From a virus (taxonomy: Duplodnaviria; Caudoviricetes): a stretch of 24,592 bases of DNA. Each line of letters opens with the position of its first letter. The first letter of the stretch is position 1. The stretch covers positions 1 to 24,592 of IMG/VR virus record IMGVR_UViG_3300037847_000548. One strand, written 5' to 3'. Positions 899 through 10,256 of the stretch are shown here, one piece after another. The translations under genes and the position numbers were made by a program. Below the pieces are notes generated by a model. That model was not told the origin of the DNA and did not search any database. It saw only the letters and a list, made by a program, of their open reading frames with translations.

Positions 899-2062
899 AT
901 GAAATACAAATACTATGCGAGTGAGATAGATAAATACACTATCAAAGTAACTCAAGCTAACTTCCCTAACACAATACAATTAGGGGATGTACAAGAAATA
1001 AAACCACCATTAGAATGGAATCAAGAACTAGATATTCTAGTAGGTGGTAGTCCATGTCAAGGATTTAGCTTTGCAGGAAAACAACTAAACTTCAATGATG
1101 AACGTAGTAAATTATTCTTTGAGTTTGTCAGACTAAAAGACACATTAAAACCTAAATACTTTTTACTTGAAAACGTAGTGATGAAACAGGAGTATCAAGA
1201 CGTTATATCAAAGTATCTAGGAGTAAAACCTATTATGATTAACTCTAGTAACTTTACTGCACAAAACAGGAAGAGATTATATTGGACAAACATTCCTGTT
1301 GATATGGACATTCAAGATAAAGGCATAGTCTTACAAGACATACTACAGGAAGATGGCATAGCCTGTGATGAAATGACTAGCAAAGAGGGTAAATCACATT
1401 GCCTAACTGCTACCTACAATGGTGCAGTATGGTGGAATAGTATCCAAAGAAAACAACGTACTATGGTAGGTTGTATTGAAGTTGGTCATGCTGAAGAGTA
1501 TGCACATTACAAACATGAACAAGCCAAAAGAGTTTATCACAAAGATGGTAAAGCACCAACTCTATTGACAATGCAAGGTGGCAACAGGCAACCTAAAGTA
1601 GCTACTTATTCAACTAAAGGTGGTCGTATTGTCAACAGGAGATTAAACAAAGATGGTGTTAGAAAAGACTACCAATTAGATTTACCTTTCACTACACAAA
1701 TAGAAGTGAGGGATGATGATAAAACTAATTGTTTAACTACTGTACAAAAAGATAATATTCTAGTTAAGGATATGACATGGAGAAAGCTAACACCATTAGA
1801 ATGTGAAAGGCTACAAGGATTGCCTGATGACTACACGAATCATGTATCAAATAGTCAGCGATACAAGATGCTAGGCAATGGTTTTAATATCCCTACTATT
1901 AAACATATAATTAAAAACTTACCATTGCATGATGGTATGGTTGTCGCATCTTTGTTTGATGGATATAGTGGATTCCAACAGGCATTGCACGAAACAATAC
2001 AGGAGCAACCAAAAGAATATACATTAGATAATCCTATATGGGATGAAAGGTGGACAAGATGA
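899..2062 (+). CDS. DNA (cytosine-5)-methyltransferase, circularly permuted (motif I at the C-terminus)
   Basis: Motif II ASEID, III GDV, IV GGSPCQGFS, VI ENV, VIII AQNRKRLYW, IX RKLTPLECERLQGLP, X RYKMLGNG, then motif I VASLFDGYSG near the C-terminus. AGGAG SD before ATG 899. Confidence 0.92.
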   Translation: MKYKYYASEIDKYTIKVTQANFPNTIQLGDVQEIKPPLEWNQELDILVGGSPCQGFSFAGKQLNFNDERSKLFFEFVRLKDTLKPKYFLLENVVMKQEYQDVISKYLGVKPIMINSSNFTAQNRKRLYWTNIPVDMDIQDKGIVLQDILQEDGIACDEMTSKEGKSHCLTATYNGAVWWNSIQRKQRTMVGCIEVGHAEEYAHYKHEQAKRVYHKDGKAPTLLTMQGGNRQPKVATYSTKGGRIVNRRLNKDGVRKDYQLDLPFTTQIEVRDDDKTNCLTTVQKDNILVKDMTWRKLTPLECERLQGLPDDYTNHVSNSQRYKMLGNGFNIPTIKHIIKNLPLHDGMVVASLFDGYSGFQQALHETIQEQPKEYTLDNPIWDERWTR

Positions 2063-3922: not shown

Positions 3923-4432
3923 ATGAATAGATTTATTATAGAAGATACACCAAGCAAGATTGCATCATCTCTATGCGACCAACATATAGTTAAGATGCCA
4001 CTAGAAGAAGCACAGATGTTGTGTACTGCACTATGGCATCATGTGCCTGACTATGCAGAGGAGCATGACCTGTACAAACCTGTACATCAAAAACATCCAT
4101 GCACTCTATGGGCAATGGAAACAAGAGCAAACTATTGGTTCGCTATGGATTTATATGGTCTAATGTTATTAGAATATACTAAACGATATGGCAGAGTGCA
4201 TGGTGCTAGTAAGCACAAAGAAGCTATCTATAGAGGTACTTGGATGATACCTGACCATACGGATGGTAAAATAACTGCACACCCACAATGTTTTAGTGGG
4301 CATGATGACTTGAAGACAGATGAGTTCTATCCTATTGAAGCATATCGTAAATTTTATATTGTAGACAAGTCTAAATTTGCGAGATACAAGTATACAGATA
4401 AACCAACTTGGATGAAAGGAGAAGTAGCATGA
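3923..4432 (+). CDS. pyrimidine-dimer DNA glycosylase / T4 endonuclease V-like protein
   Basis: LCDQHIVKMPLEEAQML, HQKHPCTLW, EYTKRYGRVH and PIEAYRKFY motifs of the Pyr_excise-like family. Confidence 0.75.
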   Translation: MNRFIIEDTPSKIASSLCDQHIVKMPLEEAQMLCTALWHHVPDYAEEHDLYKPVHQKHPCTLWAMETRANYWFAMDLYGLMLLEYTKRYGRVHGASKHKEAIYRGTWMIPDHTDGKITAHPQCFSGHDDLKTDEFYPIEAYRKFYIVDKSKFARYKYTDKPTWMKGEVA

Positions 4433-7810: not shown

Positions 7811-8245
7811 ATGGTTCAAGGAGAACTATTTAAGAAAACAAATTTATTTGATTCGAGTAAAGGCACTAAAAAGTGTAGTAAATGTTCTCTTGATTTACCA
7901 TTAAATGCTTTCTCATCTTGTCATGGCGGAACTTATTTAAGACCTGAGTGTAAGAAATGTATGAGAGATATATCAAAGTCTAGGGAAGACATGAGGAGAG
8001 TTCATGGTATGCCTGATGAGGATACTTACATCTGTCCTATATGTTTAGGTAACTCTGAAGAGGTGGGAGATTTACAAAATAGAACTGCTTGGGTGTTAGA
8101 CCATTGTCATGTTACTAATAAGTTTAGAGGTTGGCTCTGTCATAAATGTAATAGAGCATTAGGTAATTTTAACGACAATGTTGACATTTTAAAAAGAGCA
8201 ATTAAATATTTAACAAAAAAGGATAAGAATGAAACTAACACTTGA
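7811..8245 (+). CDS. endonuclease VII-type HNH (His-Me) nuclease with N-terminal zinc finger; possible homing endonuclease
   Basis: CSKC..CKKC, then CPIC...VLDHCHVTNKFRGWLCHKCNRALG...AIKYL (Endonuclease_7 signature). Confidence 0.85.
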   Translation: MVQGELFKKTNLFDSSKGTKKCSKCSLDLPLNAFSSCHGGTYLRPECKKCMRDISKSREDMRRVHGMPDEDTYICPICLGNSEEVGDLQNRTAWVLDHCHVTNKFRGWLCHKCNRALGNFNDNVDILKRAIKYLTKKDKNETNT

Positions 8246-10256
8246 TGTGGAAAACACAGTCACAAAGAGAGATGGCAAGATGCATCTTGACCCATTTGAA
8301 GCTGATAATAAGTTAGTCATGGTGGGTTGTCTTGAAGACAATGGAACAAGACATTTGTTTAACATGGATAGCGAAGAGAATAACTTTGATGCTATACAAT
8401 CTTTGTTAGACAGGGCAACTATACTCATAGGACATAACTTTGTTTATGACTTAATGTGGTTGTGGGAATCAGGATTTAAATATGATGGTGCAATATTCTG
8501 CACAATGCTGACAGAGTATGTGTTGCAAAGAGGTGTCAAAGAACCATTACATCTCAAAGATTGTGCAAACAGATATGACTTACCTACTAAAAAGCAAGAT
8601 ACATTGAAAGATTACTTTGCAAAAGGATATGCAACTGATGAAATACCAAGAGATGAATTAACAGAATACCTGATAGCAGACTTGGAAGCCACACAACAAC
8701 TTAGTCAAAGACAATATATGAGATTAAATAGTTTGGAAGATGCAGGTTTGATGGAAACTGTTATACTAACAAACAGAGTAGCAGTTGCATTGGCTAAGAT
8801 ATATAAAAGAGGATTCAAGGTTGATGTTGATACATTAGAAAAAGTTAAGAATGAGTTTGAGAATGAAAAGATTGCCATAGAGAATAGGTTAAAGGAACAA
8901 GTTATACAACTAATGGGAGATACACCTATTAATTTAAGTAGTCCTGAACAAATGTCATGGGTTATTTATAGTAGAAAGCCAAAAGACAAGGTTATGTGGG
9001 CAAATTCTTTTACACCATATATGCCTGATAAAGATTACAAACAAACAGTCAAAGATAATTCAGACATAGTATACAAAACAAAGGCAGAGAGATGTCAAAC
9101 CTGTCTTGGCACAGGAAAAATAAGAAAGGTTAGGAAGAATGGTGTACCTTATGCTAACACTAATAATTGCAATGATTGTAACTCTAATGGATATCACTTT
9201 CAACGTACCTCTGCAGTAGCAGGACTAAAATTTACACCACCAAATGCAAAATGGATAAGTGCAAATGGTTTTACTGTCAATAAAACTAATTTAGTTATAC
9301 TACAGAACATAGCTAAGAGTAAAAATCTTACAAATGCACAAAACTTTTTAGAAGATTTACAGAGATTGTCAGCATTAGAAACATACTTATCATCTTTTGT
9401 TGAGGGAATAGCAACACACCTAAAATCTGATGGTAAATTACACGTTAGATTGTTGCAACATAGAACTGCAACAGGCAGATTTAGTGGTGCTGACCCTAAT
9501 ATGCAGAATATGCCTAGAGGTGGCACGTTTCCTGTTAAAAAAGTGTTTGTTTCTCGTTGGGAAGGTGGACAAATATTAGAAGCTGACTTTGCACAGTTAG
9601 AATTTAGAGTGTCAGCATTCTTATCTCAAGATAAAACTGCAATGAAGGAGATTGAAGATGGATTTGATGTGCATAGTTATACTGCTAGTGTTATTAGTGA
9701 TGCAGGGGAGAAAATATCTCGCCAAGAAGCGAAAGCACATACGTTTGCACCCCTGTACGGAGCAACAGGATTTGGGAGAACGATTGCTCAAGCTACATAT
9801 TATAAACAGTTCAACAAAAAGTACAAGGGAATCGCATTATGGCATTCCAAATTGGCTAAAGAGGCTATAGGAACAGGTAAAATAACAACACCATCAGGTA
9901 GAGAGTTTGCATTCCCTGATGTAAGAAGAAATTCTTATGGAAAAGTGTCTCATTTTACACAGATAAAGAATTATCCTGTGCAATCATTTGCTACTGCAGA
10001 TATTGTGCCTTTGATACTATTAGAAATAGACAAGCAGTTGTCTAAATTAGAGTCTTGTATTGTAAATACTGTACACGATTCTATTGTTATTGATGTTCAT
10101 CCAAATGAGGTAGATAAAGTAACATTTATAATTAAGAGTATGAACGAAATAATAACGGATTTAGTAAGTCAACATTTTAAGATTGATTTCAATGTGCCAT
10201 TGTTACTTGAAGCAAAAATAGGTGATAATTGGCTTGACACAAAAGATGTTTTGTGA
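8229..10256 (+). CDS. polA: family A DNA polymerase (3'-5' exonuclease + DnaJ-like Zn insertion + polymerase domain)
   Basis: ExoI LDVE, ExoII GHNFVYDL, ExoIII YLIADL, TATGRFSGADPNMQN, motif A ADFAQLEFR, motif B RQEAKAHTFAPLYG, motif C TVHDS; insertion CQTCLGTG...CNDCNSNG. Confidence 0.96.
   Translation: MKLTLDVENTVTKRDGKMHLDPFEADNKLVMVGCLEDNGTRHLFNMDSEENNFDAIQSLLDRATILIGHNFVYDLMWLWESGFKYDGAIFCTMLTEYVLQRGVKEPLHLKDCANRYDLPTKKQDTLKDYFAKGYATDEIPRDELTEYLIADLEATQQLSQRQYMRLNSLEDAGLMETVILTNRVAVALAKIYKRGFKVDVDTLEKVKNEFENEKIAIENRLKEQVIQLMGDTPINLSSPEQMSWVIYSRKPKDKVMWANSFTPYMPDKDYKQTVKDNSDIVYKTKAERCQTCLGTGKIRKVRKNGVPYANTNNCNDCNSNGYHFQRTSAVAGLKFTPPNAKWISANGFTVNKTNLVILQNIAKSKNLTNAQNFLEDLQRLSALETYLSSFVEGIATHLKSDGKLHVRLLQHRTATGRFSGADPNMQNMPRGGTFPVKKVFVSRWEGGQILEADFAQLEFRVSAFLSQDKTAMKEIEDGFDVHSYTASVISDAGEKISRQEAKAHTFAPLYGATGFGRTIAQATYYKQFNKKYKGIALWHSKLAKEAIGTGKITTPSGREFAFPDVRRNSYGKVSHFTQIKNYPVQSFATADIVPLILLEIDKQLSKLESCIVNTVHDSIVIDVHPNEVDKVTFIIKSMNEIITDLVSQHFKIDFNVPLLLEAKIGDNWLDTKDVL
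9658..9870 (+). CDS. candidate overprinted membrane peptide in the +1 frame of polA
   Basis: AAGGAG at 9645-9650, 7 nt before ATG 9658. MDLMCIVILLVLLVMQGRKYLAKKRKH... reads as a TM segment plus basic patch. Confidence 0.35.
   Translation: MDLMCIVILLVLLVMQGRKYLAKKRKHIRLHPCTEQQDLGERLLKLHIINSSTKSTRESHYGIPNWLKRL

Follow-up and report, generated by a model that had tools for sequence, protein, structure and literature searches.

The open reading frame at 899–2062 of the window, by which we mean the whole 24,592-nucleotide stretch of viral DNA analyzed here, is, as judged from sequence, a phage C5 methyltransferase in a real, conserved, and naturally occurring circularly permuted form. The split, between motifs I and II (I|II), gives neither of the catalogued natural orders. 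In the reading that we consider probable, it is the permuted C5 enzyme of an HMO-2011-type marine phage, its motif I folding back onto the rest of the chain, and it would methylate the phage's own DNA to evade restriction. The gene, its signals, and its parts are as follows.

840–868, + strand: likely sigma-70-type promoter, TTGACA (840–845), 17-nt spacer and TATAAC (863–868); read by eye and putative
886–890, + strand: Shine-Dalgarno sequence AGGAG, 8 nt before the ATG at 899
899–2062, + strand: circularly permuted C5-cytosine DNA methyltransferase, 387 aa, in the order II-III-IV-VI-VIII-variable region-IX-X-I
905–994, + strand: new N-terminus with strand 2, motif II (Glu9) and motif III; Glu9 invariant in 150/150 sequences, pLDDT 91–95 over residues 1–30
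1043–1276, + strand: catalytic motifs IV (Pro52-Cys53), VI (Glu91) and VIII (Arg124, Arg126), from conservation in 150 aligned sequences
1394–1762, + strand: variable region of three exchangeable modules with TL-like cores (1394–1435, 1514–1573 and 1625–1741), likely target-recognition domains
1781–1915, + strand: motif IX, motif X and the helix of the latter, from motif profiles and positions
1916–1936, + strand: linker joining the helix of motif X to motif I, with Pro342 in 98% of 41 permutants
1937–2002, + strand: relocated motif I, comprising strand 1 (residues 347–352), the FDGYSG loop and helix A (358–369), from profile, conservation and model
2003–2062, + strand: poorly conserved tail within which the next gene likely has its ribosome-binding site and its ATGA overlap; canonical alleles at the locus end in the same tail
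2050–2496, + strand: downstream cell-wall hydrolase gene (PF07486), likely starting at ATG 2059 and overlapping the methyltransferase stop

The sequence features of the C5 class are all present, namely the PF00145 match, the Pro-Cys of motif IV, the ENV of motif VI, the QxRxR of motif VIII, and motif I. Among 150 aligned sequences E91, R124, and R126 are invariant and C53 is found in at least 90%. PF00145 matches residues 5–341 with its columns 25–322 of 324 (155 bits versus a cut-off of 22). The first 24 columns thus have no counterpart at the N-terminus and the protein starts at motif II, as an earlier note on this DNA had claimed. The order given there for the remainder, IV-VI-VIII-variable region-IX-X, is borne out by the motif positions: II at residues 7–13, III at 28–32, IV at 49–54, VI at 89–93, VIII at 122–126, IX at 295–307, X at 322–328, and I at 348–358. 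The canonical I-to-X order (topology C) is therefore not what is observed, which is II-X followed by I. The same note had expected the N-terminal columns of PF00145 to map to residues ~347–363; instead, only one stretch of the protein was matched and no second domain was returned at E 0.01. Since the profile gives a single ordinary-looking match minus its first 24 columns, standard profile annotation hides the motif order.

The relocated motif was recognized with a profile of motif I constructed solely from 147 canonical relatives, which matched residues 347–365 at 18.5 bits, whereas the top score in 1000 shuffles of the protein was 2.8. The segment flagged earlier (1937–1987, residues 347–363) is therefore a motif I with its helix, although the literal FxGxG ascribed to it does not hold: it reads F-D-G-Y-S-G (353–358), and canonical relatives read FDGMSCG or FDGCSGG. 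The eight canonical copies at the same locus score 41–49 bits, indicating that the relocated motif has diverged. An unusual motif I, with Asn for Asp, is also present in one canonical allele of the locus (L215:6635-7840), and its first residues resemble the relocated copy of the window.

The stop-to-stop frame of the gene opens at 830, and the 23 codons 5′ of ATG 899 contain no motif I, in agreement with the earlier claim. Met347 was considered as an internal start and rejected, as no ribosome-binding site precedes 1937 and the Met is not conserved. It is highly improbable that motif I comes from elsewhere, by an upstream frameshift or as a separate peptide, with the C-terminal copy redundant. 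The window does hold 24.6 kb of a genome where cultured relatives have 52–56 kb, and C5 methyltransferase fragments can complement each other according to the accessible text of PMC5944983. However, the motif I profile found no other match in six frames of the window, no second motif I was present in six frames of 10/10 related loci, and the linked copy is conserved and predicted to dock.

TTGACA lies 5′ of the methyltransferase gene in 10/10 related loci, and AGGAG precedes the start in L001–L010 too. The promoter and AGGAG of the earlier note are thus seen by eye as TTGACA-17-TATAAC and at 886–890, but a consensus scan, which demands a T at the last position, did not return 840–868. When L001–L010 are compared with the window at 830–845, identity among close relatives ends just 5′ of TTGACA, and the promoter and gene therefore appear to travel as one cassette.

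The full-length protein is encoded at 97–99% identity by three other IMG/VR contigs (L001–L003), and contigs from 4/4 runs of four studies bridge the junction between motifs X and I (these are assembled contigs rather than reads, and one of the runs may stem from the sample of origin). Three RNA runs share only 0.07–0.18 of the window's words. By whole-protein similarity, the best 120 homologues comprise 89 with the same order, 28 canonical proteins, one with both motif I copies, and two fragments. Ninety of them start at motif II; 89 carry a C-terminal motif I and the other stops within motif IX. Together, the bridged junction and the 89 homologues of shared order argue that the gene is not an assembly artefact. 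The chance that a chimera created the order is practically negligible: metagenomic origin, close canonical relatives in the same habitats, and the use of contigs instead of raw reads would favor it, whereas the junction recurs with diverged linkers in many assemblies besides being bridged in every run.

Related permutants are widespread. Of the 33 metagenome matches to the motif I pattern of this lineage, 24 hold the whole II..X-I gene preceded by an in-frame stop; in 7 the gene is truncated at the end of a contig, and the other 2 are unrelated. Motif I came first in none of them. Same-order homologues, which the earlier note proposed to look for, do exist. In a set of 503 collected proteins, which was enriched by the queries and is not a census, 177 are permutants that form 41, 18, and 7 clusters at 95, 80, and 50% identity. 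Junction searches revealed a second permutant group with a longer linker and canonical-type motifs, the P0192 group (P0192–P0196, P0201, P0202, P0206, P0209, P0322, P0323, P0339, and P0340), and an outlier, P0396. A DNA pattern for this group matched 0 viral contigs, and no identical locus was recovered for the permutant P0189. Among the 760 INPHARED phages with a match, the best 30 are aligned over query residues 4–345 only, and none of these 30 showed the permuted order.

With 15 sequences, AF2 gave a mean pLDDT of 47.8. With 150 sequences pLDDT rose to 74.6 overall (pTM 0.72) and to about 90 over residues 341–370, where the model places a strand (347–352) and a helix (358–369); confidence is low at 194–246 and 274–292. 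The model has the C5 methyltransferase fold, as seen by its match to DNMT3B (Z 24.3, rmsd 2.2, 237 aligned). M.HhaI residues 32–326 (Z 18.9, rmsd 2.7, 237 aligned) and M.MpeI residues 37–393 (Z 18.8, rmsd 2.8, 234 aligned) both match model residues 1–346, the canonical structures starting after their own motif I. DRM2 matches model residues 77–368 (Z 12.3, rmsd 3.7, 182 aligned). These ranges are end points only. Foldseek searches, which are sequential, confirm the family only.

When the chain was folded as two pieces with SAH, residues 343–372 docked on 1–342 at 0.87, compared with 0.04 for the best of three controls. The docking mark is reached by 116/157 solved complexes and 2/215 mismatched pairs; at least 97% of contacts agree between runs and the pLDDT of the partner is at least 88. 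Since the two pieces are halves of one well-known, much-solved domain, this pass reflects likeness to solved folds and not binding. In the docked model, residues 349–352 contact residues 4–8 and 47, whereas 359–365 contact 331–335. The strand at 347–352 is accordingly predicted to pair with strand 2 (4–8) and strand 4 (45–50), and helix 358–369 to pack on the motif X helix. In the methyltransferase fold the slot of strand 1 lies between strands 2 and 4 (PMC7544214, accessible text), so these contacts place the terminal strand in that slot. Terminal motif I is thus predicted to rebuild the SAM-binding sheet, and the models favor a C-terminal strand that completes the SAM pocket, a point that the earlier note had proposed to check by modeling.

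Conservation of the moved segment resembles that of the other motifs. Across 41 non-redundant permutants, mean conservation is 0.82 for residues 350–363 and 0.80–0.84 for motifs II, IV-VIII, and IX-X, as compared with 0.54 for the linker and 0.09 for the tail. Ser351, Phe353, Asp354, Gly355, and Ala362 are found in 41/41, bearing in mind that assignment to the class required a motif I match. A pooled pN/pS of 0.17 for motif I was dropped, because the blocks had been chosen by a pattern that fixes most residues, and pairwise values were used instead. Between the window and L004 these are pN 4.0/33.7 and pS 4.0/8.3 for motif I and its helix, and pN 19.8/29.8 and pS 3.2/6.2 for the next 13 codons of the tail, all being small numbers. 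Compared with L002, the relocated motif I of the window carries 5 non-synonymous changes.

Because many related phages have this order and the relocated segment should, by prediction, return to its normal place in the fold, the enzyme is likely to have remained functional; that the permuted methyltransferase is active is, on its sequence, quite probable. C5 methyltransferases attack C6 of a flipped cytosine with a Cys and transfer the methyl group of SAM to C5. By this family chemistry, Cys53 would be the nucleophile and Glu91 and Arg124/126 would assist, while the relocated strand and helix, together with Glu9 and motif X, would make up the full SAM pocket. We consider it very unlikely that the protein is a catalytically dead relic or a DNA-binding decoy with a leftover motif I. 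The divergence of motif I would agree with a relic, as would the fact that a central strand made last may hamper folding (engineered cp35M.MpeI was poorly soluble according to the accessible text of PMC5944983). On the other hand, the catalytic residues are kept, the five motif I residues persist in every permutant of a class that needed a motif I match while the adjoining tail has drifted, and the order survives down to 50% identity.

The split itself has been made in the laboratory. In the engineered cp35M.MpeI and cp33M.SssI (Albert et al. 2018, PMC5944983), the chain opens ahead of motif II and closes behind helix A, a split that we infer to be type A in those authors' A–J ordering. As far as the accessible text goes, both protected plasmid DNA after induction, extract activity was much lower than wild type, and cp35M.MpeI had the solubility defect mentioned above. 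The phage enzyme shares the split between helix A and strand 2, and the structural match of M.MpeI likewise begins at residue 37. However, the engineered proteins are CG-specific laboratory constructs, whereas the phage enzyme is natural, has an evolved linker and tail, and carries three recognition-like modules. As the same split has been engineered and is active in vivo, what appears new is solely the occurrence in nature of an already known topology. The earlier description as an undescribed natural permutation is supported in that the literature searched (mostly titles and abstract openings, with few subscription papers) yielded no natural I|II permutant.

Natural permutants in the literature searched break elsewhere. 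In the accessible part of PMC5944983, 27/27 natural permutants found in REBASE are split in the variable region, from which its authors conclude that evolution favors routes leaving both domains intact. Directed-evolution permutants of M.HaeIII, summarized in the same source, start between II and IV or in the variable region. M.BssHII, M.Alw26I, M2.Eco31I, M.Esp3I, and M2.BsaI resemble the phage enzyme in having motif X joined to motif I in one chain. They differ in starting in the variable region with I-VIII contiguous, whereas the phage enzyme starts at II and has I apart from II. This M.BssHII type corresponds to type H of Albert et al. (PMC5944983) and, as far as the accessible text goes, to topology F of bioRxiv 10.1101/2023.12.13.571470. 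By keeping I-VIII together it leaves both domains whole, and the phage enzyme is broken inside the SAM-binding half. The accessible text of that 2025 preprint (bioRxiv 10.1101/2023.12.13.571470) gives two m5C topologies and that of a 2020 review (PMC7544214) counts one alternative 5mC motif order; the string ‘permut’ is absent from PMC12707154.

The plant-type enzymes DRM2 and NtDRM (4onj, 7l4f) also have X joined to I, and IX-X-I is collinear with the phage protein in sequence (query 296–365) and model (77–368). DRM enzymes are arranged VI-X, I-V. They are eukaryotic, have 28% identity over the aligned part, and break later in the chain, as seen from the start of the match at model residue 77; in the phage enzyme only motif I follows X and II-IV are N-terminal. 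The β-class amino methyltransferases M.MboIIa, M.RsrI, and M.PvuII likewise have IV before I and match the model up to residue 367 (Z 6.8–8.6). Unlike the phage enzyme, with its Pro-Cys and C5-type variable region, they act on exocyclic amino groups, are of the DPPY type, and are proposed to require dimers (PMC7544214, accessible text).

The window has two features typical of HMO-2011-type phages according to the accessible text of PMC6918029: its family A polymerase contains a partial DnaJ domain, and its replication module is preceded by an integrase. The polymerase is 62–65% identical to those of CRP-345, HMO-2011, and CRP-1, and its DnaJ match (E 0.00017) lies below the curated cut-off. 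The DnaJ-insert polymerase typical of these phages is at 8229–10256. Weak matches to 5′-nucleotidase (PF06941) and pyrimidine-dimer glycosylase (PF03013), both below cut-off, were seen at 3–299 and 3923–4432.

Part of a methyltransferase was found in 24 of 80 integrase-anchored loci, of which 6 are permuted, 12 canonical, and 6 cut; the cut loci hold the 3′ part of the gene only, with no motif I after X. In 11/11 loci with at least 4.5 kb upstream, a permuted or canonical allele is located upstream of the integrase. Because both orders occupy the same site, they are alternative alleles of one accessory locus. Canonical phage C5 methylases, such as CRP-603 gp10 and the proteins P0083–P0115, belong to the same family, occupy this site, and share variable-region modules with the permutants; they differ in opening with motif I and closing behind motif X. 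Identity to the window protein is 68–70% for the uncultured relatives P0083–P0115 (those listed) and 46% for gp10 of the cultured Roseobacter phage CRP-603. CRP-1, CRP-345, and HMO-2011 have no such methyltransferase in their first 25 kb, and the gene appears dispensable there.

The three TL-like modules of the variable region, where confidence in the model is low, occur in differing combinations and are swapped or lost as units. Residues 247–288 are cleanly missing from P0003 and P0076, and 12 of 164 permutants with recognizable modules are without the third module. Nineteen canonical proteins carry a module combination also found in 43 permutants. The multispecific C5 methyltransferases of Bacillus phages have canonical motif order and measured specificities. 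They too carry consecutive TL-like modules, each exchanged or deleted whole; the phage enzyme differs from them in motif order. TL motifs served to define the recognition domains of multispecific enzymes, and the cores found here match the TL consensus only partially (PMC2413257, accessible text). By analogy, the three modules may give the enzyme several target sequences.

Target sites were also sought among missing words. The window contains GATC 0 times of 154 expected, GGCC 0 of 40, CCAG/CTGG 6 of 104, and CCWGG 0, and its CpG ratio is 0.28; the loss of CCAG is asymmetric. Assignment from these words was rejected. Most related loci have the same depletion, including those with canonical alleles, and in HMO-2011, whose first 25 kb lack such a gene, GATC occurs 0 of 157 expected times over that stretch. 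These words therefore identify no target.

The inferred anti-restriction role would fit the swappable recognition-like modules, as expected from an arms race with restriction enzymes. It is unlikely that the enzyme is active but has another main job, such as placing marks on phage DNA that serve replication, packaging, or lysogeny, or changing the DNA of the host. In support of such a job, GATC, GGCC, and CCWGG are already missing from the window, so some obvious restriction sites need no protection, and the gene has the integrase close by, integration having been demonstrated for this type of phage (PMC6918029, accessible text). In addition to the modules, restriction protection has been proposed for the CRP-2 methylase (accessible text of the same source), and the lack of such a gene in the first 25 kb of CRP-1, CRP-345, and HMO-2011 also speaks against another main job.

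A duplication model of circular permutation requires fused and trimmed duplicate forms (PMC5944983, accessible text). Both exist in this family: the 503 proteins include 18 fused duplicates (I..X-I..X), 4 five-prime-trimmed duplicates (X-I..X), 19 III|IV permutants, and 5 variable-region permutants, although some may be miscalled or cut genes. They are as follows.

P0308–P0313, P0316, P0341–P0346, P0349, P0350, P0352, P0354, P0358: fused tandem duplicates, one ORF
P0314, P0319, P0356, P0363: trimmed forms, IX-X before a whole enzyme
L030:3284-4321, L047:3299-4288, L107:3269-4306, L108:794-1780, L113:3458-4306: III|IV permutant loci
P0360, P0364, P0366–P0475 set: III|IV permutant proteins
L031, L032, L029, L114, P0208: variable-region permutants of the family

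In the III|IV proteins the N-terminus is at or close to motif IV and I-II-III come last, which makes theirs a second natural permuted order in the same family; L113 belongs to a complete chromosome, that of Petroclostridium sp. X23. The reading frames of L029 and L114 depart from the motif sequence just after motif I. Pro342 (window 1922–1924), right after the motif X helix, is common to 98% of I|II and most III|IV permutants and is missing at that position in the fused duplicates listed, and may mark a shared or convergent linker.

The fused duplicates, trimmed duplicates, and two other permuted orders fit permutation by duplication. Tandem duplication and fusion would have been followed by loss of the first motif I and then of the second copy after helix A, and the permuted allele would since then have recombined with canonical alleles. 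The earlier proposal of tandem duplication and trimming thus gains circumstantial support from related forms, but no direct ancestor or intermediate of the window lineage is among the 503 collected proteins. P0082, which has motif I at both ends, was rejected as an ancestral intermediate and is a recent mosaic. It has a canonical front and a P0189-like back with a crossover near the first recognition module, with 98–100% identity to P0189, a pure permutant, beginning at residue 211, and 49–63% identity over residues 1–180. This near-identity and its occurrence in one contig only indicate a recent recombinant or chimera.

Rather unlikely, though the strongest competitor to duplication, is that the same active permutant arose when a short motif I segment alone was moved or copied to the gene's 3′ end. 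The tails after helix A in permutants match tails that directly follow motif X in canonical alleles of the same locus, so that motif I looks inserted, and no I..X-I intermediate besides P0082 is found among the 503 proteins. However, a duplicate whose second copy had suffered an internal deletion would look no different, the next gene has its likely ribosome-binding site in the tails, which may travel with that gene, and fused and trimmed duplicates do exist in the family. The tail match thus fits internal deletion, segment insertion, or exchange at the gene junction. The Trp-rich tail of the window (2003–2062) and its DNA are common to canonical alleles as well, and a second tail type is likewise common to both (loci L227, L245, L257, L261, and L270).

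In a 123-row tree the window group forms a starred clade with P0082. In a 46-row tree, from which P0082, P0396, duplicates, and other permutants were left out, it takes in one canonical row and is separate from the P0192 group when the tree is free. A single clade for the two groups had a p-AU of 0.055 (46 rows), which neither shows nor rejects it. In the 46-row tree, canonical alleles that share the locus are placed apart from the permutants.

Tentatively, and at somewhat less than even chances on these sequences, one phage family would show the whole path of permutation by duplication, from fused and trimmed duplicates to at least three permuted orders (I|II, III|IV, and variable region). 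Its I|II form would be active and multispecific, would split the SAM-binding unit, would have several origins, and would compete and recombine with canonical alleles at a single locus of a marine phage lineage. If true, this would overturn the published view that nature leaves both domains intact, and the fitness and kinetics of the two topologies could be compared at about 70% identity. A widespread natural family that breaks inside the SAM-binding half, such that the central strand is made last, contrasts with the 27/27 splits in the variable region (PMC5944983, accessible text). The permuted and canonical alleles, at about 70% identity and with shared modules at one locus, are a natural pair for the cost and gain of permutation.
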